DNA from: a virus | Taxonomy: Duplodnaviria > Caudoviricetes | Direction: 5' to 3' (one strand) | Virus record (IMG/VR): IMGVR_UViG_3300043395_001001 | Span: 1 to 32,745 of that record | DNA: 32,745 nt | Part shown: positions 1,133-24,600 of the stretch, in pieces | Layout: the number at the start of each line of letters is the position of its first letter | Numbering within the stretch: position 1 is the first letter of the stretch | The notes under the pieces: generated by a model | The model's input: only the letters and a program-made list of their open reading frames with translations | Told to the model about the DNA's origin: nothing | Databases searched by the model: none | Made by a program: the position numbers and the translations under genes

Positions 1133-3190
1133 TTACAGGAAGGAGTTGCTGATGAGACGACGGAATGAGAACTCTCGCATGCGGGCGGTCACGTATCCAG
1201 CGGTAGCAGTGGTTCCCCAGTAGAGGGCAGGCGCGGCGTTTTCCGAACGGAGAGTTCCGGAGTTCCGCTGGAGGGCTGCGGTAAACCCTGAGCCAGACGT
1301 GGGGTTGTTCCGAATCACACCGTAGATACCTTGCGGGGTCTTGCGGATGATGAACTCCCGAAGAGCGTTCATGGTCGTGGATGCGGCAACACCCATGTCA
1401 ACGCTAGTGATCGACCCGTTGTTGATGACCTCAAAGAAGATGTTTGTGCTTGCCGAACGGTCTACACGAAAGCCGACACCGTCGAGCGGCGTGATTGAAG
1501 CGTCGTGAGAGTAGACGCCGATGCGGCAGATGGACGCGCCGGATGTGGCATTCCCGTCAAGCAGAACGAATCTCATCTCAAAGTTCTCGCTGAGTGGAAG
1601 GATCTCACGCTCAAACGAGAATCGTCCGGCGAGGTTCGCTGTGGAGCCACCAGTGGAGTACCACTCAAAGAGACTTGACCCGCTGTCAACCCGACCTGCG
1701 AAAGAGCCGCTGATGTTGGTCGAAGTCCACCCAATGGCACCGAACGGGGATGCCGTGGAGCCACGGGTGAAGAAGTCCTGCACGTTCATGATGTCCAACT
1801 GGCGGCCGTATCGAAGCGAAGTAAGTTCCGCATCTTGCAGGGTGGCCAGCGTGTTGTCGGAATACCACGCCATCGCGTAGCCCTTTGGAAGGATGAGTGG
1901 CGACGGGTTGCCGGAAATTCCTTTCCACACGATGCTGGTAGCAGAAGCGGCCCCCCAGGTCTCTCCGTTGACTTCGGCGGAGTTGATGACCGTGTTTGCG
2001 GAAGTCCCGATGTCAGCAACAAGACCTTTGAGCCCGCTTAGAATTTTGATCGTGTCGATGACCAGTCGGCCATCGGTCTTCCGGATCACGTCACTGCCGG
2101 GTGCTTCCGCATTCGCCGTGGTGATGCAGACGTTGCTATTCTTCATCTCCACCAATCGGAGCATGTCGTTCGTTCCACTGGAGGAGTTGTAGTCGCCGCC
2201 GTTGATGACGGCGTTCTTGGACCCTTGGAAACGGAACACGGTCTCGACGCCGACGGACGTGCAGGACGTGATTGTGATGCCGTCCGTGTAGCGGAGCGTT
2301 TCAATGCTGTCGATCTCAGCCATGTTCCAGCCGTAGATACCCGTGGAGGCTTGGCAGAGTTCGTAGTGGATGTCAGCGACTCGGCTTGCAGAAAAGCAGT
2401 ATTTGAATCCTGACACCCACACCTGTTCGACCTTGATGGTCTGGCCAGCGAAAAACGAAATCGTCCCGTCGTCCAAACCAAGTCGGATTCCGTGACCCGT
2501 TTCAGCGGGAGATCCGAATACGACGAAGCGACGGAGGACACAACCACCGCAGGAGGTGGCATCGTTGGAGCCCGTGGCGTCGATGACGGGTGCCGTCCTG
2601 AGAGCTGGCATGAGAATCGAGACACCGCTGTAACTGGAAACGATGGAGCTGCCGCTCGGGAGGTTGCTCTGGTTGAGGCGCGGGTTGACGCCTTCGATGA
2701 TGATTCCGGGTTTCAGCAGCACGTTGCAGAGGAATACCCCGGCAGGAATGACGACCTTCTTCGTGGTGGTCGAGGATGCCGCAGCGTCGATGGCCGCTTG
2801 GAACGCCGTGGTTGAGTTTGTCCCCCAGAACGCCGTAGCACCAGACACCGTGGTCGATGCAGAAGCCGCGAGGACAACGGTCGTTGTGTTCGTGCGAGAC
2901 GCGATGGTCGTCACCAGGTCCGCTCCAGCAGCACCCGCGCCCACAACACGGATGAACTTGCCGACATGGCTCGTCTGAAAGTTCGCCGTTGCGGAAGTAA
3001 GCGTGGTTCCACCCGAACTGATCGCAGCATCGTCCACGCGGCGACCGTCGCCGACCGCTCCGTAGTCCGTGATGAGGAGATGCGGTGCCGCCTGTGTAGC
3101 AGCACTCCCCAACCCCAGTGCGGTGCGGGCGTCGGCGGCTACGTCGGCGAGTTCGGAGGAGTCAAGTGGGAAAGGTCCGGAAATGGCCAT
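1133..3190 (-). CDS. Tailspike / receptor-binding protein with pectate-lyase-like beta-helix
   Basis: ITDYGAVGDG...TTAFQAAIDAA...VVIPAGVFL signature of Pectate_lyase_3-type phage spikes; Gly/Ser/Thr-rich beta-strand pattern; N-terminal ARTALGLGSAAT fibre motif. Confidence 0.8.
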   Translation of the reverse strand: MAISGPFPLDSSELADVAADARTALGLGSAATQAAPHLLITDYGAVGDGRRVDDAAISSGGTTLTSATANFQTSHVGKFIRVVGAGAAGADLVTTIASRTNTTTVVLAASASTTVSGATAFWGTNSTTAFQAAIDAAASSTTTKKVVIPAGVFLCNVLLKPGIIIEGVNPRLNQSNLPSGSSIVSSYSGVSILMPALRTAPVIDATGSNDATSCGGCVLRRFVVFGSPAETGHGIRLGLDDGTISFFAGQTIKVEQVWVSGFKYCFSASRVADIHYELCQASTGIYGWNMAEIDSIETLRYTDGITITSCTSVGVETVFRFQGSKNAVINGGDYNSSSGTNDMLRLVEMKNSNVCITTANAEAPGSDVIRKTDGRLVIDTIKILSGLKGLVADIGTSANTVINSAEVNGETWGAASATSIVWKGISGNPSPLILPKGYAMAWYSDNTLATLQDAELTSLRYGRQLDIMNVQDFFTRGSTASPFGAIGWTSTNISGSFAGRVDSGSSLFEWYSTGGSTANLAGRFSFEREILPLSENFEMRFVLLDGNATSGASICRIGVYSHDASITPLDGVGFRVDRSASTNIFFEVINNGSITSVDMGVAASTTMNALREFIIRKTPQGIYGVIRNNPTSGSGFTAALQRNSGTLRSENAAPALYWGTTATAGYVTARMREFSFRRLISNSFL

Positions 3191-9092: not shown

Positions 9093-9121
9093 ATCCTACT
9101 TGGCGCAGGGGTAAGGGTCAA
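9093..9121 (-). promoter_or_regulatory. Sigma70-like promoter, probably leaderless
   Basis: TTGACC (9121-9116), N17, TAGGAT (9098-9093), 6 nt, GTG (9086). Confidence 0.65.
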
Positions 9122-9810
9122 GCGGGCGCGGGCACGAAGCCCAGCGCGTCCACCACGGATTGATAGCAGATTTCCCGATCCGGGGCGGCAAGGATCATCC
9201 CCGCACCCCCGGCTTTCTTAACCACCCAGCCGATGCGGATCACGTAGTTCGGCGCGGTGGGTGCGGTCTTCGTGATCGCTCCAGCGGTGGCAGCGGAGAG
9301 GTAGAGTGTGTCGCCTTCGTTGTAGGCGTTCGTGTTGATGTCGCGGACCAGTCCGAAGGTCGTCACGTAGCCGTCCTCCCCATGGAGCATCGTGTGGGTG
9401 GCCACACCGATGACGCTGCGCACGATGGACGCCGAGGAGGCGATGGCCTTCGACACGGATGCGCGTTGCCCGGTGGCCCCCGTGATGGCGACGACCTGCC
9501 CGTTGGTGATCGTCGAGCCGGAGTTGTTGTGGACGCGGATGAGGCTTTCCTGCCCCACTTGGATCGCCGTGTCGGGGATGTCCGTCTGGAGCTTCAACGT
9601 CCGGTCGGTCGCATCCCATGAGAGCGTGCCCTCGGTGGTCGGGACGTTCGTCGGCGACAGGTTGAACTGGAGATAGTCGAACTGAGTCTGCTGAAGACCG
9701 GAGAGCGTGATGGTGCGCACCGTGTTGGTGCTCACGTCATACGCGAAGAGCAGATCATCTGACGCGGGTGTCAGGCGAACAAGAACTCGTGCGTCTTCAA
9801 GTTGGGGCAT
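9118..9810 (-). CDS. Putative capsid fibre / decoration protein (230 aa)
   Basis: Start re-called at ATG 9810 (TGATG overlap); contains the common phage domain RVHNNSGSTITNGQVV...IGVAT...GYVTTFGLVRDINT...GDTLYLS...APNYVIRIGWV. Confidence 0.7.
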   Translation of the reverse strand: MPQLEDARVLVRLTPASDDLLFAYDVSTNTVRTITLSGLQQTQFDYLQFNLSPTNVPTTEGTLSWDATDRTLKLQTDIPDTAIQVGQESLIRVHNNSGSTITNGQVVAITGATGQRASVSKAIASSASIVRSVIGVATHTMLHGEDGYVTTFGLVRDINTNAYNEGDTLYLSAATAGAITKTAPTAPNYVIRIGWVVKKAGGAGMILAAPDREICYQSVVDALGFVPAPA

Positions 9811-10496
9811 CAGTAGATTTGTTTGACGACCCAACGGTTGCCGATGTAGGCGAAGTCGAGGGCCAGCGGGGAGTTGACGTTGTCGAACGGGTTTGCGTCC
9901 GTGTAGTCCGTGGTCGTCCCCGCAACGTCAACGAAGCGGATTCCGGATGAGCAGAAGATCACGATGTCCGTGCCGAGCCACTTGAATGACAGTGCCTTGG
10001 TCGGCGCGGCCGGAAGGTTGATCTGGTTGGCCTGCGCGATCATGGCACCGTCGTCGGCTTCGGTGATGGTGCGCGTCACGTAGCCAGTGAGCAGCTTGCC
10101 TTGGAGCGAAATTGTTCCAGACGCGGCAGGGCAGGTAACGTCGAAGTTGGAAGCGGAGCTGCTTGGCTTGATGGATGTTCCGGCCCCTAGTGTGTTCAAC
10201 ACTTTGACGTAGCCATCAGATCCGCCGTCCTCTTCCCCAACTTCAATGCCGACACCAGCGAACAATGTCCTCAGACCGAGGTAACCACCGACAGGGTGCG
10301 TCTTGAGAACCTTCCCGTAGTCGTCGGAGGTAAGGACGTTCGATACTGCGTCTACACCAAAAATCTCCGAAAGCTCCGCCTTCGTGATCGTCTTCACCGT
10401 GCTTGTGCTTTCGTCATAGACGTAGAACATGTCCCCGTCGGCGAGGTCGGAGCTGTTCATGGTTACAAAGTCTCGGGCGTCTTCGAGGCGGGCCAT
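9810..10496 (-). CDS. Putative capsid fibre / decoration protein (228 aa)
   Basis: Start re-called at ATG 10496 (MARLEDAR...) because a terminator-like hairpin lies in the 5' part of the track ORF; N-terminus is homologous to those of both neighbours. Confidence 0.7.
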   Translation of the reverse strand: MARLEDARDFVTMNSSDLADGDMFYVYDESTSTVKTITKAELSEIFGVDAVSNVLTSDDYGKVLKTHPVGGYLGLRTLFAGVGIEVGEEDGGSDGYVKVLNTLGAGTSIKPSSSASNFDVTCPAASGTISLQGKLLTGYVTRTITEADDGAMIAQANQINLPAAPTKALSFKWLGTDIVIFCSSGIRFVDVAGTTTDYTDANPFDNVNSPLALDFAYIGNRWVVKQIY

Positions 10497-10520
10497 TTCT
10501 GTGAAGGTGAGGGTTGTTGG

Positions 10521-10566
10521 AAACAAACGCGCTACCGACGGCAGGAACCGTGGGTAGCGCCTTTTT
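10521..10566. terminator. Probable bidirectional intrinsic terminator
   Basis: Stem GCGCTACC (10529-36) / GGTAGCGC (10553-60) with an inner stem; flanked by AAACAAAC on the left and CTTTTT on the right. Confidence 0.65.
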
Positions 10567-10594
10567 ACGATCCTGGCAGTGAACCGGGTGTTGC

Positions 10595-10819
10595 TCAAGA
10601 CATCTTGCGGGTGAGGACACCACTATTGAGCCACAGGTCTCCGATAGCAAGACCGGAGGAAGAAGTGGGCAGACTGGCGATGTATTTCTCGAACAGCTCC
10701 TCGACAGTGATGGACCGCTCCCCGTTGTTCTGGAGGGATACATCGTAGATCGGAATCCGGTCGGATGCAGAGATGGTCCCGAGGGACGGAATGGTAGGAA
10801 GTTCGCTGAGCTTGGCCAT
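10595..10819 (-). CDS. Small capsid-associated protein (74 aa)
   Basis: First gene after the capsid gene; MAKLSELP...DRIPIYDVS...SITVEEL plus LPTSSSGLAIGDLWLNSGVL fibre-like motif. Confidence 0.75.
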   Translation of the reverse strand: MAKLSELPTIPSLGTISASDRIPIYDVSLQNNGERSITVEELFEKYIASLPTSSSGLAIGDLWLNSGVLTRKMS

Positions 10820-10840
10820 GGTGGGATTCTACGGTTTGAG

Positions 10841-10880
10841 TTCAAAGAAGGGGCACCCCACTGGGAAAGCAGGGTGCCCC
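10841..10880 (-). terminator. Intrinsic terminator after major capsid gene
   Basis: GGGGCACCC (10850-58) / GGGTGCCCC (10872-80) stem followed by TTCTTT on the minus strand, starting 12 nt after the capsid stop. Confidence 0.75.
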
Positions 10881-10892
10881 GTGACATCCGGC

Positions 10893-12194
10893 TTAGGCAG
10901 CCGGGGTGGTGCTGGTGCGCTTGAACAGGATCACGTAGCCGCGCTCGATGTTCTTCGGCAAGCTGGCCGAGGCGAGAGTTCCCATGTAGAAACCGATGGT
11001 TCCGAGCGGGTTCTTGATCTCGTCCTTGATGTTCAGCCAGTTGAACTCGCCAGTGTGGTTGACGGGGTCGAAGCTGAAGCCAGCAGCGGAGACGTTCGGG
11101 GGCGGGATCTGCACCTCCATGACGGACTTCACGAGCACGTAGGCAGCCTCGTAGTCGGCGCTGTCGTAGGCCGAGTTGTAGTTGCCAGCGGCGTCGAGCG
11201 GCTCAACACGGGTCAGCACGTTGCTGACAATGTTGAAGCGCGGCATCGTGTCGTCGATGATGTGGTAGAAGCCACGGAACGAACGGCTCACACCAAGGGG
11301 CTTGATGAGGTCGTCCACCTTGGAGCTTTCGCGGAGGTCGTCGCGGTAACCGGACTCGGTGACGAGCTGGTAGCTGGCCTCAGCGGAGGTCATCAGCGCG
11401 AACACCGGGGCTCCGTCAACGGTGCCGTAGGCATCGGATTGAGGAGAGGTGATGCGCAGGCGGGTGCCGACACGGTCGAGGATCTTGTTGGAGATGTTCG
11501 TCGTCGGGATGACGTTGATGCCCGTGGCGTGACCGACCATGGCAAGACCAGCGAGGTTGACACCATAGAAGGCGTCGTCGATGGTGCCGTCCGCATCAGA
11601 GTCAACCAGAGTGGCGACGGTGGTACTGGAGGTGCAGGTCACGAGGTTGCCGCAGAGGCGCTCATACTCGGTCTGGTTCCGGCGTTCCCAGGACCAGCGG
11701 GTCGCACCACCAAGGGCGTTGGTGATCGCGGTGGCTTGCTTGGTCAGGTTCGCAGCGGAGCGCAGGTCGTTGATGTCCACGTAGGGCGAGCGAACGCGGG
11801 CGATTTCGAGGTAGTAGCTGCGCAGCTTCTTGGTCCACTTGACATAGGCAAGCGAAGCGGAAGCGGTGGAACCGATGGTCTCGTTGGCCGCATACTCGTT
11901 GGGCTGGGACTCAATGGAGCTGTTGAGCGACTGGGACGAGGTGATCTCGGTGCCGACGCGAGCCCAGTTCAGACCGACAGTCGAGCCACCAGCAGCGGTG
12001 GTCGGGATGGAGCGGTCGTAGATGAGCGAGGTCAGGTTGTCACCCATGCCAGTCGGGAGGGCCGACTTGGGCAGGACGTTGAACCAGGGGCTCATGTAGA
12101 GGTGGTTTTCATAGACGGCCTTGTCGATGACGAAGGCGTTTTGCGCCATCACCTGATCGATGTCGGCGGTACCGGAGTTGGTGTAATCAGACAT
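10893..12194 (-). CDS. Major capsid protein (433 aa)
   Basis: Position after portal and scaffold; very strong codon bias; own promoter and terminator; size and composition fit a capsid protein. Confidence 0.8.
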   Translation of the reverse strand: MSDYTNSGTADIDQVMAQNAFVIDKAVYENHLYMSPWFNVLPKSALPTGMGDNLTSLIYDRSIPTTAAGGSTVGLNWARVGTEITSSQSLNSSIESQPNEYAANETIGSTASASLAYVKWTKKLRSYYLEIARVRSPYVDINDLRSAANLTKQATAITNALGGATRWSWERRNQTEYERLCGNLVTCTSSTTVATLVDSDADGTIDDAFYGVNLAGLAMVGHATGINVIPTTNISNKILDRVGTRLRITSPQSDAYGTVDGAPVFALMTSAEASYQLVTESGYRDDLRESSKVDDLIKPLGVSRSFRGFYHIIDDTMPRFNIVSNVLTRVEPLDAAGNYNSAYDSADYEAAYVLVKSVMEVQIPPPNVSAAGFSFDPVNHTGEFNWLNIKDEIKNPLGTIGFYMGTLASASLPKNIERGYVILFKRTSTTPAA

Positions 12195-12227
12195 GGTAGT
12201 GTTCTACTAAGTTGAAGGAGGGTGCCT

Positions 12228-12244
12228 CGTGTCACCGTGACACG
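12228..12244. promoter_or_regulatory. Perfect palindrome CGTGTCAC-C-GTGACACG (candidate operator 2)
   Basis: 8-bp arms with a 1-nt centre, 33 nt upstream of the capsid ATG. Confidence 0.5.
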
Positions 12245-12277
12245 TTGGCGGATGGAACCGGGCTGAGCCGGATGTCC

Positions 12278-12378
12278 GAGACTAGAACCCTATTAGGCCG
12301 GGAGCTGGCGGTCTCTGAAGTGGACTGCTTCAACAACCTCGTTAGAACCCTACAATGCCGGGAGCTGGCAGGTCGTCG
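12278..12378 (-). repeat. Tandem 27-nt motif in the capsid leader, each copy enclosed by a different stem (candidate cis-regulatory RNA)
   Basis: 12283-12309 and 12343-12369 match at 24/27 positions, 60 nt apart; closing stems 12278-82/12311-15 and 12331-39/12370-78. Confidence 0.7.
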
Positions 12379-12387
12379 TTGCGAGCA

Positions 12388-12419
12388 CAGTATTACCGTA
12401 ATACTGGCTCGGCTGTCAA
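12388..12419 (-). promoter_or_regulatory. Capsid-gene promoter overlapped by palindrome CAGTATTAC-C-GTAATACTG (candidate operator 1)
   Basis: TTGACA (12419-14), N18, TAATAC; the palindrome with 9-bp arms (12388-12406) covers the -10 region. Confidence 0.6.
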
Positions 12420-12426
12420 CCGGGGC

Positions 12427-12467
12427 AAAAACAAACCCCCTGCCCCCACTCAGGGACAGAGGGTTTG
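12427..12467 (-). terminator. Intrinsic terminator after scaffold gene
   Basis: Minus strand reads CAAACCCTCTGTCCCT-GAGT-GGGGGCAGGGGGTTTG followed by TTTTT. Confidence 0.8.
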
Positions 12468-12488
12468 CGACACCATGAACAGAAACGA

Positions 12489-13610
12489 TTATGCCATCCC
12501 GAGTCCCGCCTTCAGAGCGGACGCGAGATCCTTCGGCGGCTCACCCTTGGCACGGGTGAAGTTGGTCACGCCGGGTTTGGCTTGGCGGTAGGCGAGCAGT
12601 TCCTCCAGTAGTTCGTCGCGCTCCTTGAGAATCGCGGCGTGCTGGGTGGCCAGTTTGGAGAACGTCTTGCGGGCGATGAGGTTGTAAACCTTCTCCTGCT
12701 CGGGGAGGGCGTCCGGGTCGATGTCGGCCACCTCCTGCGCAGCCTCTTCGGCCATGGTCTTCGCAAACGGGATGAACTTCCCGATCTGGCGGGTGATGAG
12801 CGGCACGGCGTCGCGGCGTTCCTCGGCACGGGCGGCGATCTGCTCCGCTGTCTCCCGTTCTCCACGGGCTTGCAGTTCCAGTAGGGCCTTGTCCGCGTTG
12901 GCATAAAGTTGCTCGCGCTTCTCCATGACGGGCTTCATCGCCGAGCGGGCGTTGGCCAGAGCGACCACGTCCATCGGGGAGACCTGGAGACCGGAGAGCA
13001 GGTCGTTGAGCTTCGACTCGTAGGCTTCGTCCTCGGGGTTCTCAATGGCGTCGGCGAGAGCGTCGTAGTCGATGTCGTAACGCTCGGCGATCTTGCCGAT
13101 CTTCGTGGCGATCTCGCGGGCGGGCTTGGCCACCTGATCTTGGAACGCCTGAGTCTTCTCCAGTTTGACCACGAGCATCTCGTTCTCGTATTCCTGGAGC
13201 TTCGCCTCGTATTCCTTGGCCTTGGTCGCGCTGACCTCCAGCTCCTTGAGCTTGGCCTCAAGCTGCGCCTTGGCATTGCGCTCGGCCTCGGTCTCGGTCT
13301 TGAGGCGTTTCACCTCCTCCTTGAGTTCCTTGAAGCGGTGTTCGACCTTGTCACCCTTGGCGTCCTCGGTCTTCTCCGGTTCGGCGATGCCGAGTTCTTT
13401 CTTCAGGAACTCGGGGGTCTCGTCGTCAGACAAGTCGGGGAGATCAGGAGTAGGTGTTTGCGGCGGCTCCGGTGCGGGAGTCGGCTCGGCGGCGGCAGCA
13501 GGAGTAGGTTCCGGTGCGGGCTCGGCAGCAGGTGTCGCGGGCTCTGCCGGGAAGAGCTGGCTCGCCAGTGCGGCGGCCAACGGGTTGTCATTGCTTTCGG
13601 TGGGGTCCAT
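12489..13610 (-). CDS. Capsid scaffolding protein (373 aa)
   Basis: Lies between portal and capsid; Pro/Ala/Glu-rich N-terminus followed by long acidic coiled coils. Confidence 0.75.
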   Translation of the reverse strand: MDPTESNDNPLAAALASQLFPAEPATPAAEPAPEPTPAAAAEPTPAPEPPQTPTPDLPDLSDDETPEFLKKELGIAEPEKTEDAKGDKVEHRFKELKEEVKRLKTETEAERNAKAQLEAKLKELEVSATKAKEYEAKLQEYENEMLVVKLEKTQAFQDQVAKPAREIATKIGKIAERYDIDYDALADAIENPEDEAYESKLNDLLSGLQVSPMDVVALANARSAMKPVMEKREQLYANADKALLELQARGERETAEQIAARAEERRDAVPLITRQIGKFIPFAKTMAEEAAQEVADIDPDALPEQEKVYNLIARKTFSKLATQHAAILKERDELLEELLAYRQAKPGVTNFTRAKGEPPKDLASALKAGLGMA

Positions 13611-13612
13611 GT

Positions 13613-13681
13613 CTTAGTCGTATTTGGGGTGAAGTCTGCACCGCCTCGGAGGGAGGTGGGCTTAGTCGTATTTGGGGTGAA
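13613..13681. repeat. Perfect 21-bp direct repeat CTTAGTCGTATTTGGGGTGAA x2 with a 27-bp spacer
   Basis: Copies at 13613-13633 and 13661-13681. Confidence 0.95.
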
Positions 13682-13994
13682 TGTGTTCCCACGGCTCAAG
13701 AGGAGCGGTGGCGGCGGGCTTCTGAATCAGGCCGATGAACAGGTCCGGGATCTGGGATGCGACCGAGTGCATGGCCGTCTTGCGTGCCAGCAGTTCGGCC
13801 GACTCGACGCGGATGGCGTCGGTTGAGACTTCAAACTTCTTCGCAATGAAGTGGCATGCGGCGAGGAACACCTCATCGGTGACAATCGCCTTGATGCGCT
13901 CCTGATGAATCTCGTTTTGAATCCACGACTCAAGCGTGGGGTAGGTTCGTGTCTGCCTCGGTTTGCGCGTGGGCTTCGCTGGGGTATCACTCAT
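13662..13994 (-). CDS. Hypothetical protein between portal and scaffold (110 aa)
   Basis: Starts 6 nt after the portal stop; helical; a typical position for a small head-assembly gene. Confidence 0.75.
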   Translation of the reverse strand: MSDTPAKPTRKPRQTRTYPTLESWIQNEIHQERIKAIVTDEVFLAACHFIAKKFEVSTDAIRVESAELLARKTAMHSVASQIPDLFIGLIQKPAATAPLEPWEHIHPKYD

Positions 13995-14000
13995 GTGGGG

Positions 14001-16241
14001 TTAGCGTCGTGACTGGTAGGCCGTCCTCGGGAAGGCGATCTGCTTGTTGACCATCTCGGCGGCCTTGAGATCGTTGAGGGCGAGGTTCTGCTGCGCCTTG
14101 GCTTGGAGTTCGGCGATCTTGAGCTGTCCGATCTGCTGGGCCAGTTCGAGTTTGAACTGCTCCTGTGCGAGCTTCAACTCGGCGAGAGCCTGCTCGTTGC
14201 CGGGTGCTTGACCCTCGGGCGCTCCGGCTTCCACGCCTTTGCGCTCGGCGGCCTTGATCTTCCGCTCCATGTTGGTCACCACCTGGTTCATGTTGTTGAC
14301 CGCCTCCTTGACCTGCGCGTAGATCGCCGCTTGAGACGGGTCTTGGGCCAGTGCGTCGCCGTGCTCGGCAACGTGGGTGAGGATCGCTTGGAGACCGGGG
14401 AGCATCTGCATCGGGTCCATCTCACCACGCTCGACCTTGTCGAGGATCTCCATGAGAAATGGGATGTGCTCCTGCACGTGGGCGGAGTGGATCTCCTGCG
14501 GGTGGACCGGGATGGTGACGCCTTGGAGGAGCTGGTTGTTCTCCAGCAGGGCCATCTTGGCGTCCACCGGGAGGCGCGGCTCCTCGGGTTCGGTAGCGTA
14601 GTAGTCGGCGTTCTGGTGCCCCATGATGTCCGACACGATCTGGAAGATGAGCCGCTTCTGGCCGATTGAGTCGAGGTTCGGCAGCAGCTCCAGCAGGCGC
14701 TTGTTGAACAGCGCACGGGTGGCGGGGCTGCCCGCTCCGTAGGCGCGGAAGGCATAGGTGTTGTCGTGGTCGATGGCGCGAAGCATCTGCGGGGTGATAC
14801 CTTTGGCCGTGATGCGGCGGTGGAACTCAGCGACGAGCGGGTCTCCGTGCTTCTTGCCCATGACGATCCGCTTGACCATGGTGCGGATGAGTCGGTCAAA
14901 TGAGCTGTAAAACAGGTCGATGGAGCCCGTGTCTCCGGCGCTCGCCTGCTCCAGTGAGGCTTCGACGTTGACCCTGTTCTGGTAGGCGTCGGACGACGGC
15001 GCGGAGAACTGGCTCGCGTTCTCGTCCATCATGTTCTGGGCGCGGTCGAGAAGCGGGTAGAGCGTCTGCTGCATGTTCGGCATCACCCGGCCTTGCACGA
15101 GGCTGAAGCCCTTGGGAAGGATGTCGTATTGGCCGACGCGGGTAATCGTCATGCCCTGAAGCGAGTTGGCCGCTTCGGACTCAAGCAGAGTCCCGGTCGA
15201 GGCGATGTCGAACGCGGTGTTGAGGGTGCGGTTGATGAGCTGCTCCTGTGGGTAGATCAGGTGGCCGAACCCACGGATGGAGTGATAGGTTCCGTTGCCG
15301 ATGCCGTAGGTGAAAAACACGAACGCCTCTTCGGGTGTCCTGTATTTATCCTTCTCAAAGAACAAGAATGGGCCTTCATTATCCTTTTCGACCATGGCGT
15401 AGCTGATCGAACCGTCGAACTCCCGGACGTAGGAGCACACCACTTTGACGTGCTTGAACTTCCGTAGGTTGGTCGTGTCACCGTTCTTGATCTGCCGTTG
15501 GAAGGTTTCGATCTGGTAGGCGTCGAGGCTGTTGCTCATCTCGGTGGCGCGGTGAATCGCGTCCTTGACGGCAGCGACGTTCCAGCCGAGCCGTGCGGCC
15601 TTCTCCTCGTCACGGATGAAGCTGTAAAGCTCCGTCACGGTCATGTGCTTCTCCGCCGTGGCGATGTCGATGCACTCCTCGGTGGCGGGCGTGTCTCGGG
15701 GGATCAGCATGTCGCCGAAGCCGCAGACCGAGAACCGGAAGTTCTCCGTGTCCGGCCAGAAGGCGATGCCGACGCCATGTGCGTTGAACTTGTCAACCAG
15801 TCGCATGAAGCTCGACACGAAGGCGGGCCACTTGCGGATCGTCCGGGTCAGCTCCTCGGACAAGATGCGGGTGATGCGCATCCGTTCGGCCGACTCGCCG
15901 TAGTCCACGGTCAAGGTCATCAGGTGCTTGACCGAGGTGACCATGTCGAGGTAGCCGTTGTTGAGACGGTTCAGACGGGAGCGGCCTTGGAGGAAGTTGG
16001 CGTTGGCCCGTGCTCCCTGACCGTTGGCGTTCAGCGACGCTTGGTTGTAGGGCGGCTCACCATCCAGCGACGCCTGCACGCGGGCTCGGTTCGTCGCATT
16101 GATTTCGTCGTCCCTGCGGTTCTGGGAATGCGCGGAACGGATCATCTCCGGGGAGGTGATCCGGGTTTCAGGGACGTTGCCGTCACTGTCGATATTCGCC
16201 AAGCCAAGGCTGGCGAGTTCCTCAAGACCGGAGAGACTCAT
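14001..16241 (-). CDS. Portal protein (746 aa)
   Basis: Size, position upstream of scaffold and capsid, and a long Gln/Ala-rich coiled-coil C-terminus as in podovirus-type portals. Confidence 0.8.
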   Translation of the reverse strand: MSLSGLEELASLGLANIDSDGNVPETRITSPEMIRSAHSQNRRDDEINATNRARVQASLDGEPPYNQASLNANGQGARANANFLQGRSRLNRLNNGYLDMVTSVKHLMTLTVDYGESAERMRITRILSEELTRTIRKWPAFVSSFMRLVDKFNAHGVGIAFWPDTENFRFSVCGFGDMLIPRDTPATEECIDIATAEKHMTVTELYSFIRDEEKAARLGWNVAAVKDAIHRATEMSNSLDAYQIETFQRQIKNGDTTNLRKFKHVKVVCSYVREFDGSISYAMVEKDNEGPFLFFEKDKYRTPEEAFVFFTYGIGNGTYHSIRGFGHLIYPQEQLINRTLNTAFDIASTGTLLESEAANSLQGMTITRVGQYDILPKGFSLVQGRVMPNMQQTLYPLLDRAQNMMDENASQFSAPSSDAYQNRVNVEASLEQASAGDTGSIDLFYSSFDRLIRTMVKRIVMGKKHGDPLVAEFHRRITAKGITPQMLRAIDHDNTYAFRAYGAGSPATRALFNKRLLELLPNLDSIGQKRLIFQIVSDIMGHQNADYYATEPEEPRLPVDAKMALLENNQLLQGVTIPVHPQEIHSAHVQEHIPFLMEILDKVERGEMDPMQMLPGLQAILTHVAEHGDALAQDPSQAAIYAQVKEAVNNMNQVVTNMERKIKAAERKGVEAGAPEGQAPGNEQALAELKLAQEQFKLELAQQIGQLKIAELQAKAQQNLALNDLKAAEMVNKQIAFPRTAYQSRR

Positions 16242-16254
16242 GCCGTTTTGTAAC

Positions 16255-16515
16255 TTAGTTGCATCTACTGGTCAAGATCGTGTCAAGAGCGCGGTTGGAG
16301 ATCAAGACACCGTCCCCGTCAGCGGGAGCGTATTTGTCGTAGTGGTGCTCCAGCATCGCCAGCAGGGCCACGTCGCGGCCGTTGCGGGGGAACACGCGCC
16401 ACCATTTCCCGGTGACGTGTTCGGTCCCGAACTTGATGTCGGAGAGATTTTCGGGGCGCGGGACGATGACTTCGGGGTCAATCTCCTGCCTGGCTGTCAG
16501 GTGCATCATGTTCAT
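16255..16515 (-). CDS. Hypothetical protein (~86 aa; start uncertain, 16515 or 16542)
   Basis: Fills the gap before the portal and overlaps the end of the upstream gene. Confidence 0.6.
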   Translation of the reverse strand: MNMMHLTARQEIDPEVIVPRPENLSDIKFGTEHVTGKWWRVFPRNGRDVALLAMLEHHYDKYAPADGDGVLISNRALDTILTSRCN

Positions 16516-17122
16516 CTTGGGTAGGCTTGAAAGGTTTGGCACGGAGCACGCTCATGTCGGCTCCCCGGGACTCGGGTGCTGCGGTCTTGGTTCCGGCGCT
16601 GCGGTCCTTGATGACGTTGAGGACACGGACCAGATCCGCGTAGTCCTTCAGCGGGGGACGGTCGGCCATGAAGGCCTTGACCTCGTCCAGAAGACCGAGC
16701 ACCACCAGCTTGTCGAGGATCTCAGCGGTGTCCTGCGAGTCCTTCACGTCCTCGGTGAGCTTCTGCTGATACGCCTCCAAGGCGTTGAGCACGGGGCGGG
16801 GTGCCGGGTTGAACGTCTTGCGGTTGACGATCTGGTCCTCGGTCCCGGCGAGCGGCTCCAGCATCGGCAGAGCGCTGTCGTCCACGTCGTCCTTGGCTTT
16901 TTTCCGAATCGCCTTGTCGATGTCGCCCTTCTTGCGGAGGACGAACTTCTTGCGCCACCGGGAGAGCGTCGGCGCGGAGATGCCGGAGTGGCAGGCAATC
17001 TGGTAGTCGGAGTAGCCCTGAACCATCAGCTCGCGGATGTGATCGACAAACGCCTGCGGGTATCGACCGCCCTTGCGGGGAGGTGCTCCGATGGGTTTGA
17101 GTGTCACCATTGCGTTTGCCAT
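16478..17122 (-). CDS. HTH protein, probable terminase small subunit (214 aa)
   Basis: Start re-called at ATG 17122; RYPQAFVDHIRELMVQGYSDYQIACHSGISAPTLSRWRKK HTH followed by helical segments; adjacent to terL. Confidence 0.65.
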   Translation of the reverse strand: MANAMVTLKPIGAPPRKGGRYPQAFVDHIRELMVQGYSDYQIACHSGISAPTLSRWRKKFVLRKKGDIDKAIRKKAKDDVDDSALPMLEPLAGTEDQIVNRKTFNPAPRPVLNALEAYQQKLTEDVKDSQDTAEILDKLVVLGLLDEVKAFMADRPPLKDYADLVRVLNVIKDRSAGTKTAAPESRGADMSVLRAKPFKPTQDEHDAPDSQAGD

Positions 17123-17206
17123 GTGGCGCGAGTATCCACGCTGTCGCGGGCATTGCAAGAACAATCGGCTTGCAAATGCAAGAAAATTGCGGTAAGGGTG
17201 CGGCGG
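17123..17206. promoter_or_regulatory. Divergent promoter region between the putative terS and terL
   Basis: Two self-complementary TTGCAA hexamers (17153-58, 17170-75), each followed on opposite strands by an imperfect -10 close to an ATG. Confidence 0.45.
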
Positions 17207-19054
17207 ATGACCACACGACGCAAGACCGCTTTGTTCAAGCGGTTCCACCCGAAACGCCTCGACACCGGGGCTTGGGAACTCCCGAACGGCCTCGGCATCA
17301 TTCCGGCCTGCAACGAGATCACCGCTGTTCTCAAGGCGGCTCGGCACACCGATGATCCCGAGGCATTGGAGTATTACTACTGGTGGTGCGCCGACTACTG
17401 GTGGAACCAAGACGCCGATGACATGCAGATGGCCCGCCACAAGTGGGCGCACCGGATGATCTACCACGCCTGCCGGGAGCAACACCTCGCGGTCGGCGGG
17501 TCCGCGTCGTCGGGGAAATCCCACACCATGGCAGGCTGGGCGCTGTTCCAGTTCATGCGGATGCCGGAGTCCACCACAGTTCTCGTCACCTCCACGGATC
17601 TGAAGGGCGCACGGAAGCGGATCTGGGGCTCCATCGTCAAGTTGATGACCTACATCGACTACCCGCCGTGGCGTGTCAAGGACGCCATCGGGAGCTTGTC
17701 CTACGAGAGCGGCAACAAGACCCCGGCCCGCGAAGGTATCCACATCGTCACGGCCGACAAGTCGTCCGACAAGAACAAGGTGGGTAAGCTCATCGGTATC
17801 AAGTCGAAGCGGGTCATCCTCATTGCTGACGAGCTTGGTGACATGGGGCCGAACATCCAGGAAGCGGCGTTCAACCTTCGCAAGAACCCGTCTTTCCAGA
17901 TGATCGGCATGTCCAACCCCGGCTCACGCTTCGACCCCTTCGGCGTCTTCGCCGAACCGGAACATGGTTGGGACAGCGTCAACGTCGAGGCCGACAACGA
18001 GTGGCGCACCCGTCTCAAGGGTCTCTTCATCCGGCTCGACGCGGAAGACTCGCCGAACCTTGACCCGGAAGATCCGGAGAAGGACTGGCTCACGGGCTTC
18101 CACTTCGACTACCTCCCCAGTCAGCGGTCGATTGAGGAAGACCTTGACGCCACGCTCGCTCCGACACGGGACGAGGCGCGGAAGTCGCGCAGCTACATGC
18201 GCTTCAACCGGGCGATCTTCTTCGACTCGGACGACGACGACACGATCTACTCCGAAGCCGACATCCGCAAGGCGCGGGCCGACACGGCGACCGAGCTGAA
18301 GAACGTGACGCTGGTTGCGGGCGTTGACCCGTCGTTCTCCAGTGGTGGGGACAAGACCGTGATGGCCGTCTGCGAGGTTGGCTGGGACGCCTACGCCCAG
18401 CTCTGTGTCCAGTTGAAGGAGTTGGTTTACCTCCACGAGGACATGACCAACAAGGCCGATCCCCGGACGCTCCAGATTGCCGAGGCCATCCGCCGCGAGT
18501 GCGTGAAGCGCAAGATCAAACCCGAGAACGTCGGCATCGACGCCACGGGTGGCGGCGGCGGTGGCCTGTGCGACATGCTCCAGCTCCAGTGGAACGACCA
18601 GTTTCTCCGCGTCCAGTTCGGCGGCAAGGCGTCGGATCGGAAGATCAAGAATGACAGCAAGGTCGTCGCATCGGATCGCTACTACAACCGGGCATCCGAG
18701 CTGTTCTTCGTCGGCAAGCAGTTCCTCCTCGGTCGCCAGATTTACGGTCTGCCCAACGTCATCATCAAGCAGATGTGCAACAGGTCCTACCTGACCAAGA
18801 AGACCAGCAGGGGTGTAGTGTTGCAGGTCGAGCCGAAGGAGAAATACAAGGGCCGCACCGGGTCATCGCCCGACGAGACCGATGCGTTCCTCGTCGCAGT
18901 CGAGACCGCCCGTGTCCGCCACGGGTTCCTCGCCGCCGACCCGGTGAAGGAGCGACCGGAGCCGAACGCACTAGCGCGGTGGCTCAAGAATCAGGAGTTC
19001 ATCCGCAATCCGTTCGACCCGTCGTTGCTCGGGCACCACGCTAACTTGGCGTGA
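17207..19054 (+). CDS. terL: Terminase large subunit (615 aa)
   Basis: Start re-called at ATG 17207. Walker A GGSASSGKS, Walker B VILIADE, coupling motif GMSNP, RNase H-like nuclease motifs AGVDPSFSSGGD, GIDATG and SSPDETDA. Confidence 0.92.
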   Translation: MTTRRKTALFKRFHPKRLDTGAWELPNGLGIIPACNEITAVLKAARHTDDPEALEYYYWWCADYWWNQDADDMQMARHKWAHRMIYHACREQHLAVGGSASSGKSHTMAGWALFQFMRMPESTTVLVTSTDLKGARKRIWGSIVKLMTYIDYPPWRVKDAIGSLSYESGNKTPAREGIHIVTADKSSDKNKVGKLIGIKSKRVILIADELGDMGPNIQEAAFNLRKNPSFQMIGMSNPGSRFDPFGVFAEPEHGWDSVNVEADNEWRTRLKGLFIRLDAEDSPNLDPEDPEKDWLTGFHFDYLPSQRSIEEDLDATLAPTRDEARKSRSYMRFNRAIFFDSDDDDTIYSEADIRKARADTATELKNVTLVAGVDPSFSSGGDKTVMAVCEVGWDAYAQLCVQLKELVYLHEDMTNKADPRTLQIAEAIRRECVKRKIKPENVGIDATGGGGGGLCDMLQLQWNDQFLRVQFGGKASDRKIKNDSKVVASDRYYNRASELFFVGKQFLLGRQIYGLPNVIIKQMCNRSYLTKKTSRGVVLQVEPKEKYKGRTGSSPDETDAFLVAVETARVRHGFLAADPVKERPEPNALARWLKNQEFIRNPFDPSLLGHHANLA

Positions 19055-21661: not shown

Positions 21662-24600
21662 TTAGTCCCGGAGTTGCAGATACCTCGGGTGCATCCGGTA
21701 GGCAGCGTCGAGCTGGCGCAGGCGTTCAGGTGAGATCCGGTAGATGTCCTGACGCTCCTCCTCGCCCATGACAGGCAGGTCGGTGACGTGGCCGTTCAGG
21801 ACCAGTGTCGTCCTGCGGCGGGACAGTCCGGTGTCCACCATGGACCGGGCGATCTCGTTCTTGTCCGAACCGAGACCCTCGAACCCACTGGCGAGGCGGT
21901 CGATCTTCTGCCAGACGCGGCGGGTGGCATCGACACGGTCGGCGTAGATGTCCTCAACGCTGGCGTCCAGGGGTGCCGGGGACTTGAGGCTGCTTGTGAT
22001 CTGCCACAGTTCCGAGTTGGCCTTGCGCTGGTTGTTGAACGCCCGGAAGCGCATGTCCTCGATGCGGTAGTTGCGCGGGCGGAAGATGGCGACCATGGAG
22101 AATGTGATCCCTGCTGGCGAATACCACCAGTTGTCCCGTCCGGTGTCGCCGTCGTTGAGCGAGTCCTTCAGGTCTGCGAGCTTCTTGATCGTCGCAGGGG
22201 TGTAGGCACCCGCTACCACGTGCATCAGCGACTTCCTCAGCTTCTCAGCGTCGGTGTCAGACTCAAGGTAGATCGGGAGTCCGGTCGTCTCGTTGATGTT
22301 CCGCTTCACGTCGATCAGCTTGCTTACAGCCACCTGCTCGCCGAACATGCCGTCCGCGAGGAAGCGATACCACGTGTTCGGGATGTCCTCCGGCTTGCCG
22401 TTGAGCAGGTTCCGCATGGTGGACGTGAACGGGTCAATCGGGAACGAGTAGGGGTTGGCGAAGGTCAGGTCAATCAGCGTGATCGTCTTGTCATCCCTGT
22501 TGATGAGCGGGATAAACGAGGAGTTCTGCGAGTAGGACGGTAAGGCCGCACGGATCGCCTCGTCCTCATCGTCACCGATGCCCGCCGATGCGGCGAGAGC
22601 CAGTGGCGCGATCATCGTCAGGCCACCGTGAACCGTGGCTGCGATAGCCGCCCGTTGGTGGGCGCTCCTGCGGAGAACATCGTTGCCAGACTTGTAGTCC
22701 TCTTGGATGAGGCGGTAAATCTCAAAGGTCGAGCGGATCATTTCGGACTTGAACCCGATGAACGGTGCGATCAAAGCGGAGATGCCGTTCTGCGAAAAGG
22801 TCTCGACCGCCTGCGACCGCATGGAGTGAGTCGGCGTCACGCGCTTGGTGCGGCGTGCGGCCTCTTGTTTGATCTCTTCTTCGGTGCCGAACTTGGCCTT
22901 GGTGAGCAGGTCTTTCCAGTAGTAGTAAACGATGGGGCTGACCACGCCTTCGGTGAAGTCGGCCATCTTGGTGAGGAACTCAAGCGCCTTGGAGGCTTTG
23001 CCCTTAATCGTCCCGAGCGCGTCGATGGACGCCTTGTTGACGTATTTCTCAGCCAGTGCGACAGCTTGGCTCGGCGTCTTGGATCCGGCTTCGATCAGCT
23101 CGTTCAGGTAGCTGACCTGATTGGAATCCTTGAGAACACCGGACGAGACGAGTTCAAGCATCTGGTTGCGGAATGTCTCTGGATCTTTGACGAAGGTGTC
23201 GAACCAGCGGGTGTCTTCACCGAGAACCGACGAGAACAACGACATGCGGTAGCCTTTCTTGTAGGCCCCTCCCGATGCAAACGGGATCGCCCCGACGGCG
23301 ATTGCCGTGATGTGCGATCCGGCGAAACCACGGGTGAAGTAGGCCAGGTTACCGAGCGTTACCACACCCATCGACACACCTGCCAAGTTGCGCAGACGGT
23401 TGTTGAGCCCGGTGAGCACGGCCTGACTCGTGTTCGTCGAGGAACGTCCACCCGTGCCGTAGGCCGAGTCGAACGCCTTCTTGCCCTCGGGCGAGGTGTA
23501 GAGTCCAGCGAGGTGCGGGTAGGATCGGTGCTCTGGGTTGGCCGACACGATGGGCACCCACTTGTCGTAGAGGTTGCGGTTCGCGTCCTTCTGCGCCTTG
23601 GTGATGAGCCAGCCCTCGGCGGTCCCGATGGCCGCAAGCTCGGCCGTCTGGCGGTTGCTGGTGATGAGCTTCGACAGCGCCTCCAGTGTGCGGAGGCTGT
23701 TGAACAGCGGGTCGGTCACCTCCTGCAACGCCTCACGGATCGCCGGGTCGATGTCCTTCTTCTGGCGCAGACGATCAATCGGGAGACGCAGACCGTGGGT
23801 CGCGGACTCGACGGTATCTTGGATGTCGTGACCCATGATGAAGTCCTCGAAAGCGAGGCGGGCTCGTTCGGCGACGTTGACCTTGGCGATGCTCATCAGC
23901 TCTTCCGGATCGGCCTCGGGGCCTGCTTTGCGCTGAAGACGAGCGACCTCGCGGCCGATGGAGAACTGCTCCTGTGCGGCGGCGAGCTGCTCGTCGGTGA
24001 GTCCCTGATACTTGTTCAGGTTGCGCATCAGCTCGATCTCCTGCTCGGCGAAGCTCTTGCGGAACGTCTCGATGGCCGACTGGCGGATCTGCTCGAACTT
24101 GGGATCGTTGAGCATCTGCTGCGCCAAAGCCGGGTTGTGGTGGATGGCGTAGCTGCGGACGAGATAGAGGTCTTCCGAGCGGGTCAGCTTGGCGTGGAAG
24201 TCCGGTGCCTCGGATGCCGGGTAGAGCTTGATGAACTCCTTCTGCAAGGCGAGGCGCTGACTGCGGAACCTGCGGACCCAGGTGCCAACCTTCGGCGCGT
24301 TGGTGTCGAGCCACTGTTGCGAGAGGTCACGCTGACGGGCGAACTCGCGCATGTTCGCTTCCATGGCTCGGTTCTCCATGTCACGTTGAAAATCCATGAC
24401 GGTATTTTCACCACTGGCACGCTTCTCTTTGGCCTGATCGTAGGCTTTCTGCCGGGTCTCGCGGATGCGCTTGTAGGCTTTCTCGTAGTCCGAGATCGCC
24501 GCCTTGCGGGCTTGGGTCTTCAGGCGTCCTTCCTCTTCGATCTCTTCAGCGAGACGCAGGTCGGACTGCACCTGACGCTTGGCTGCGGCGATGGCGTTGC

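Follow-up and report, generated by a model that had tools for sequence, protein, structure and literature searches.

Tandem predicted H-type pseudoknots ahead of an HK97-fold capsid gene form an uncatalogued cis-acting RNA family in uncultured phages, with a putative role in capsid production

PreQ1-I and other H-type riboswitch aptamers are small pseudoknots in which an A-rich strand runs along stem 1, an arrangement also predicted for the RNA described here. In the Escherichia coli tisB mRNA, a pseudoknot at the 5' end, some 100 nt ahead of the start codon, is reported to bind S1/30S and to be needed for translation, and the same source describes tight binding of H-type pseudoknots by S1 (PMC7708055). 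The gene 32 operator of phage T4 contains one pseudoknot, at which binding by the single-strand nucleic-acid-binding product of the gene is nucleated before it continues along an unstructured leader (PMC3014915), while the put RNAs of phage HK022 are described as acting without a phage factor (PMC9378689). Autoregulation of the P22 scaffold is covered by work cited in PMC2115188. How tailed phages produce capsid subunits by the hundreds and set their ratio to scaffold, especially in hosts where Shine-Dalgarno sequences are scarce, has been little studied. Here we describe a tandem pseudoknot element in the leader of a phage capsid gene, located in a 32,745-nt stretch of viral DNA that is referred to below as the window.

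The repeats sit in a 294-nt gap between a putative scaffold gene (12489..13610, minus strand, 373 aa) and the major capsid protein gene (10893..12194, minus strand, 433 aa). The initial annotation placed them in a capsid 5' leader, and the gene behind them is indeed an HK97-fold capsid gene as judged from a structure model. Searches with the capsid sequence against PHROGs, Pfam, PDB sequences and INPHARED phages gave no match, and the identification rests on fold: the AlphaFold model (pLDDT 77.5) has N4-like HK97-fold capsids as its best Foldseek matches (E 8e-12, 12–14% identity). The upstream gene is assigned as a putative scaffold from its acidic coiled-coil-like sequence and its position between a portal-sized gene and the capsid. 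Family searches with it gave no match, and a homolog with 26–32% identity occupies the same place in 5/5 relatives. Both proteins are net acidic. An intrinsic-terminator-like hairpin at 12432..12467 (minus strand), recognized by an inverted repeat and a terminator scan, would end the upstream transcript, and the same scan placed another directly 3' of the capsid gene (10850..10880, minus strand). Genomes of the relatives, which are uncultured phages, measure about 60 kb and encode terminase, DNA polymerase, primase and helicase. A set of 31 shared proteins, of which 16 lack a family, includes none that was recognized as an RNA polymerase, sigma factor or RNA-binding regulator.

Other genes in the window include a 3381-aa virion-type protein (21662-31807, minus strand) with an ART-PolyVal ADP-ribosyltransferase domain (E 3.5e-23) and homologs in 5/5 relatives, a pectin-lyase-like tail protein (1133-3190, minus strand) and a phage cement-like protein (9118-9834, minus strand). 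The terminase large subunit (16382-19054, plus strand) is 44% identical to that of a relative and is encoded opposite to the structural genes. Its open frame begins about 260 codons ahead of the aligned part, and the true start is probably later.

On the minus strand a 27-nt core occurs twice, at 12369-12343 and 12309-12283, with the two copies 60 nt apart and identical at 24/27 bases. Both copies and their closing stems were found as first described, and a search allowing up to three mismatches returned these two and no others in the window, and nothing in 100 shuffles. Unit 1 (12331..12378) is closed by a 9-bp stem (12378-12370/12339-12331) that includes two G-U pairs. It contains a GCC/GGC hairpin (12369-12367 and 12359-12357) with the loop A-GCU-CCC (12366-12360), followed by a spacer (12356-12351), GGG (12350-12348) and UUCUA (12347-12343). 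In unit 2 (12278..12315) a 5-bp stem (12315-12311/12282-12278) encloses the core at 12309-12283. The proposed combination of a GCC/GGC hairpin with a CCC/GGG pseudoknot is thus present in the sequence, and covariation in relatives backs it. Folding also predicts, on the same strand, a linker hairpin between the units (12316..12332; 5 bp, 7-nt loop), for which no conservation is shown, and a 7-bp hairpin ahead of the initiation region (12228..12244) that varies among relatives. Single-sequence folding energies are ordinary (z of -0.30 for the leader, -1.79 and +0.12 for the two units); the case for a structured RNA is a comparative one.

To follow the element in other phages, we gathered loci through the capsid at 40–51% identity. 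This yielded 185 loci with a capsid match, 159 of which had enough upstream DNA, leaving 109 distinct leaders. With the window added, a lenient parser detected at least one unit in 105/110. A stricter parser was run on 157 distinct leaders, a set that also takes in loci found by the motif first, and detected units in 150 (two in 122 leaders, one in 28), compared with 0/157 reverse complements, 0/150 capsid coding stretches, 0/143 upstream stretches and 6/785 shuffles. When the search started from the commonest motif, 99/102 loci had this capsid 70–206 nt behind the last match; the other three were one truncated locus and two single matches in cellular genomes, in coding-like sequence. Strong covariance-model matches in 49 phage records formed one adjacent pair per genome. 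No model match was obtained in 13 of these records, mostly owing to long-spacer or variant knots lost by the filters. Candidate second sites in the same 49 records amounted to eight single matches (E 0.003–0.45), the two best of which lie in coding-like sequence, and were rejected. The exact core of the window has no match in viral contigs. A pattern fitted to its clade matched 26 loci in these contigs, of which 25 were single with no capsid behind and were taken as chance, 10 of these being one repeated coding sequence; the sole tandem, capsid-linked locus belongs to the record of L034.

Across these leaders the 5' part of a unit consists of a closing stem and a 2–4 bp hairpin whose loop is made of 1–2 nt, GCU and a triplet, ending with the 3' strand of the hairpin. 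The 3' part begins with an A/U-rich spacer (4–9 nt, or else another hairpin) and goes on with the complementary triplet, UUCUA and the closing stem. GCU is found in 264/272 units and UUCUA in 237/272, words that the parser itself demanded in degenerate form. Spacers contain 700 A, 416 U, 93 G and 77 C, and variable linkers give a unit period of 50–92 nt. The triplet occurs in 13 types, all paired as selected by the parser, which made 0–6 false calls in controls; they include CUA/UAG, CUG/CAG, CCG/CGG, CCA/UGG, CGC/GCG, UCG/CGA, GGG/CCC and the CCC/GGG of the window. The hairpin changes from GG/CC to CC/GG in the clade of the window, and compensatory swaps on different branches affect each of the three pseudoknot pairs. 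In a MAFFT alignment of 83/143 distinct short-spacer units (all 43 variant and 40/100 common ones), which was not fitted to structure, 96.8% of cells pair and 50 two-sided changes are seen versus 8.6 in shuffles. Slid controls of this alignment scored far lower, while two of five whole-structure measures, those counting pairs or types, were no better than shuffles (272 and 220 of 500). A capsid tree with 106 rows indicates that the compensatory swaps arose in many different branches. The closing stems differ freely in sequence but remain paired, with 94% of 209 units at or below -4 kcal/mol as opposed to 31% after swapping. Two units with unlike triplets are found in 14 leaders, and each triplet is complementary to its own partner, which indicates pairing within a unit and speaks against ring-forming swaps between units. 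A DNA repeat serving as a protein site was rejected, as G-U pairs and compensation are found on one strand only. Taken together, these sequence comparisons lead us to conclude that the repeat exists and is under selection as RNA, and that the family, which spans a large group of aquatic phages, is linked to a single structural gene in phages with capsids 32–45% alike.

Each unit is predicted to form an H-type pseudoknot. Stem 2 appears to continue past the triplet via U-U and C-U mismatches to a G-C pair, which is present in 81/83 alignment rows. The C-U mismatch becomes U-C in all 8 units with GUU (8/272 units), and in one clade (L104, L107, L079, L293) the mismatches are replaced by Watson-Crick pairs. 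A clade comprising L104, L107, L079 and L290-L296 carries a single variant knot about 95–170 nt before the capsid start, with a nearly fully paired stem 2 and a different tail. Separately, the tail is one base shorter in 20 units; in the tree this affects only the first unit and is scattered over several branches (L023, L025, L087, L093, L098, L187, L201, L202, L204, L220, L250, L260, L263, L273 and L274), a distribution that may reflect recombination or repeated convergence.

The initial annotation also described a degenerate third unit. Its sequence is present as written at 12277-12250, but it is a separate hairpin module and not a knot: a 4-bp hairpin (12271-12258) with the hexaloop CUCAGC lies inside a short GGA/UCC stem (12250..12277, minus strand), and the knot covariance model misses the region among six matches with E up to 10. 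Hairpins with a CUNNGY hexaloop occur in 70/157 leaders, versus 0 reverse complements, 3.6 shuffled and 5 coding controls, and their stems covary. A looser pattern finds 95/157 leaders against 11, 13.8 and 23 in the respective controls. The hairpin is usually located between the knots, whereas in the clade of the window it follows both. Triloops that are closed by a C-G pair and have a flipped base are a common shape for protein binding.

A sigma-70-like promoter with a perfect -35 (12419-12414) and a -10-like hexamer 18–19 nt further on lies at 12389..12419 (minus strand); a strict promoter scan did not call it because of its spacing. Among the relatives and the window, the -35 word precedes unit 1 by 30–110 nt in 147/150 leaders, and A and T are enriched at the -10 positions. 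We infer that a capsid-only mRNA starts near 12385. In the 147 leaders the first paired base falls at the predicted +1, at a median of 32 nt from the start of the -35, and unit 1 is anchored to the promoter (53.5 ± 6.6 nt) while the last unit is only loosely tied to the AUG (96 ± 25 nt). The element begins at the predicted +1, and it ends 50–232 nt ahead of the start codon. A perfect 9-bp inverted repeat (12406-12388) overlaps the -10 region in the window, and perfect inverted repeats of at least 7 bp are found in 57/124 distinct promoters of relatives versus 12 in shuffles; some of these are upstream terminators, and others could be operators for a late regulator.

The initial annotation had named three observations as contrary to its claim of a new structured RNA, and all three were looked at. 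A lack of conservation or covariation in homologous leaders is contradicted by the presence of both, and a transcription start downstream of the motif is not indicated, the predicted promoter lying upstream of it in relatives. As for membership of a known Rfam family, a search of Rfam 15 gave no match in the window and, in 1 + 11 + 8 loci searched by E-value, nothing beyond weak unrelated hits that lie off the knot. The claim of a structured RNA stands.

A Shine-Dalgarno-like word was found in 0/150 leaders, and G makes up 4.7% of their last 30 nt. In the window the initiation region with its AUG (12192..12206, minus strand), which lacks a Shine-Dalgarno sequence, is complementary to the 3' strand of knot 1. 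Prompted by an inverted repeat found in the window, we tested this pairing: 12357-12343 and 12206-12192 form 13/15 pairs over the AUG (-11.6 kcal/mol), better than with all swapped start regions. The pairing is also found, in different letters, in L034 and L109 and is absent in the close relative L110; in the single-knot clade the closing strand pairs with positions -15 to -4. Across 109 leaders, start-region pairing reaches p ≤ 0.05 in 18 when the knot tail plus 8 nt is considered, mostly in three lineages, and in 7 for the tail alone (about 5 expected), so that a switch would be lineage-limited at best. The start region of the window is 0.29 unpaired when folded freely versus 0.58 with the knots and closing stems forced. 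Mean values are 0.73 for 92 main-clade leaders and 0.70 over all 109, with values below 0.5 in 8/16 single-knot-clade and 10/92 main-clade leaders. Terminator-like hairpins are found in 25/150 leaders by a lenient test. A 348-nt contig from a freshwater metatranscriptome is 100% identical to 12001-12348, and nothing comparable was found elsewhere in 10000-14500 (one run, contigs only; a second contig of 30 nt, gapped, was left out). This contig, which shows neither strand nor ends, is weakly consistent with a leader that is continuous with the capsid message.

The layout is likewise promoter-proximal in a sister clade whose capsid is 32% identical. Counts here refer to 13 distinct leaders with the promoter pattern, with 21 loci lacking the pattern left out. 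A fully paired H-type knot at +1 is present in 10/13 of these leaders versus 8/260 shuffles, which indicates that the knot shape itself is selected; with a narrower promoter pattern it is found in 3/8. The generic pseudoknot finder used has a high background (28/37 leaders versus 19 reverse complements, 13.7 shuffled and 10 coding) and was counted only when tied to +1. A GCU/UUCUA knot with a new triplet occurs in 4/13 leaders and a Shine-Dalgarno sequence in 8/13. In leaders L392-L453, a hairpin loop GGCUC matches an upstream GAGC in 15/37 (1 reverse complement, 0 shuffled), and knots of other kinds are also present in this sister clade. In the L421 group the conserved leader is a different one.

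Five phage-like contigs with tandem motif and capsid (L188, L189, L191, L192 and L194) sit in bins labeled Opitutae (two), Verrucomicrobiales, Blastopirellula and Acidimicrobiaceae. Since bins are unreliable, Verrucomicrobiota as the host is only a guess; this phylum is reported to include members scarce in Shine-Dalgarno sequences (PMC10783764). The motif was present in two of 121 genomes from the candidate host phylum, once in the binned phage contig and once as a weak match in coding-like DNA.

We consider it likely that the leader RNA raises or gates capsid production. Our leading explanation, to which we give a probability of about 0.4, is that the knots bind a conserved host factor, most likely S1 or 30S, and thereby raise capsid translation. 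The promoter just upstream would yield a capsid-only mRNA on which each unit would fold as an H-type knot inside its closing stem, with a 3-bp stem 1, a loop 1 of 1–2 nt, an A-rich loop 3, and a stem 2 in which the covarying triplet is followed by two pyrimidine mismatches and a G-C pair. Knots and single-stranded C/A/U-rich linkers would together provide a standby site, giving 30S access to a start codon that has no Shine-Dalgarno sequence. In the window and some other lineages the folded knot would in addition keep its 3' strand off the start codon, and knot formation or binding would then turn translation on. That the core is kept at 32% capsid identity, with the scaffold only 26–32% identical within the family, suggests a conserved partner, and such a partner, together with the 5' anchoring, the A/U-rich linkers and the missing Shine-Dalgarno sequence, makes an enhancer that recruits S1/30S our best guess. 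A multivalent binding RNA controlling capsid translation is the best fitting of the functions suggested initially, with its partner still putative. Several observations sit poorly with S1/30S. Recognition by S1 is of the knot shape, which leaves the fixed GCU/UUCUA core and the CUNNGY loop unexplained; the start region is mostly open here but sequestered in tisB, so that a standby site is less needed; Shine-Dalgarno sequences in 8/13 sister-clade leaders mean that the knots are not simply a substitute for them; and the host-type chromosomes searched offer no cellular copy of the motif that would name the partner.

The fixed core and tandem copies would also suit multivalent binding by free scaffold or capsid subunits, or by a late regulator, acting on the knots and the hairpin loop to set capsid translation. 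Such a feedback operator would fit the restriction of the motif to one phage gene, the alternative pairing over the AUG in the lineage of the window, and the succession of a knot and an unstructured, G-poor leader, which resembles T4 gene 32 as described in PMC3014915. We nevertheless hold it to be rather unlikely, as the core is unchanged while the scaffold drifts to 26–32% and the capsid to 32–45% identity, both proteins are net acidic, and the 31 shared proteins (16 without a family) include no recognized RNA-binding regulator. If instead the knots sensed a ligand, either a host metabolite or free scaffold, and released the capsid start codon, head assembly would be coupled to host state or scaffold supply; this translational ON switch seems to us a little less probable still. 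Its stricter form, a tandem riboswitch in which each knot would serve as an aptamer for a small molecule or an ion and would free the start codon when bound, so that capsid synthesis follows host state, is clearly improbable. An H-type knot with an A-rich loop 3 and a fixed non-canonical core would suit an aptamer, the U-C for C-U swap in 8/272 units suggests direct contact, and mutually exclusive start-region pairing is found in the window, L034, L109 and the single-knot clade. Set against this, the family shares no expression platform (terminators in 25/150, start pairing in 18/109), the motif never precedes metabolic genes and has about eight fixed bases, and the clade of L104, L107, L079 and L293 swaps the mismatches for Watson-Crick pairs. 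We know of no earlier case of riboswitch-like control of a virion structural gene.

Stacked knots at +1 might alternatively shield the capsid mRNA from 5'-end-dependent decay, which we rate as no more probable than the aptamer. The first paired base at the predicted +1 in 147 leaders, the fully paired knot at +1 in the sister clade and the redundancy of tandem copies agree with such a stabilizer, but it leaves the fixed core and the internal copies unexplained. A simple 5' hairpin would suffice to stabilize an mRNA, and RNase J (TIGR00649) scored above cut-off in 0/61 genomes of the candidate host phylum, the host itself being uncertain. By analogy with put, the nascent RNA might bind host RNA polymerase and let transcription continue past the terminator that follows the capsid gene and on into the tail genes. 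Two promoter-proximal modules, a terminator directly behind the capsid gene, and the lack of a recognized phage RNA polymerase or sigma factor among the 31 shared proteins agree with this reading, and a conserved host partner would fit it; the identical modules, the variable linkers (50–92 nt) and the single site per genome fit it poorly, and we regard it as slightly more remote again. Least probable is a trans-acting or catalytic RNA, be it a self-cleaving ribozyme, a packaging RNA or a mimic of a type III antitoxin. The strand order does resemble an HDV-like P2-P3-L3-P1.1 core, and the arrangement of tandem knots behind a promoter is reminiscent of type III antitoxins. The ribozyme reading failed the test for an HDV-type P1: the spacer pairs upstream no better than swapped sequences (0.38 versus 0.39 kcal/mol, 180 units). 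For P1.1, fixed C-G pairs on the 5' side of L3 would be expected, whereas the triplet lies on the 3' side and covaries freely. For a type III antitoxin, abutting repeats ahead of a toxin gene or, for a phage mimic, a matching host antitoxin would be expected; both were rejected, as 99/102 loci precede the capsid and 120 further genomes gave no host copy beyond one weak coding match. A trans-acting RNA in general is disfavored by the absence of a host copy and by the metatranscriptome contig, which runs from the knots into coding sequence. A boxA antitermination site, which would call for a constant, single-stranded, pyrimidine-rich word after GCU, was also considered and rejected, as compensated variants, GGG and CGC among them, occur at the three positions that follow GCU; we take the likeness of the commonest variant to be chance.

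The natural compensatory variants of the 27-nt core define mutations with which these readings can be tested. Recruitment of S1/30S would make the element a portable translation enhancer, and ligand binding would make it a new switch class. No description of the motif was found in the literature searched. Fremin et al. 2023 (PMC10690425) mined similar IMG/VR intergenic DNA for phage structured RNAs; the motif may be listed there without annotation, and it is not named in the portions of the text and supplements that were searched.

Compared with the described systems, the capsid leader differs from preQ1-I-type aptamers in its capsid context, in having no Rfam match and in lacking an unpaired ligand-pairing loop between the stems. 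HK022 putL and putR share with it a structured RNA right behind a phage promoter and ahead of terminators, but as described in PMC9378689 put is a single V of about 70 nt, formed of two unlike stems with a triplex and no pseudoknot, and is found at two sites, behind early promoters. The gene 32 operator of T4, T2 and RB69 shares a leader pseudoknot at least about 70 nt upstream followed by an unstructured leader (PMC3014915), whereas here two knots and a hairpin precede an acidic HK97-fold capsid. The closest likeness in placement is to the E. coli tisB +42 mRNA: in both, an H-type knot lies at the 5' end about 100 nt before the start, flanked by single-stranded RNA, and the start is sequestered in tisB and can be in the window (PMC7708055). 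In the account given by that source, tisB has a single knot without an enclosing stem or tandem copy, a stably sequestered Shine-Dalgarno sequence and antisense control; S1 binding is shown for tisB and putative for the capsid leader, and we claim no homology. On the strength of the comparative evidence, the capsid leader element is a real and uncatalogued cis-acting RNA family, of the general type of leader pseudoknots and of putative function.
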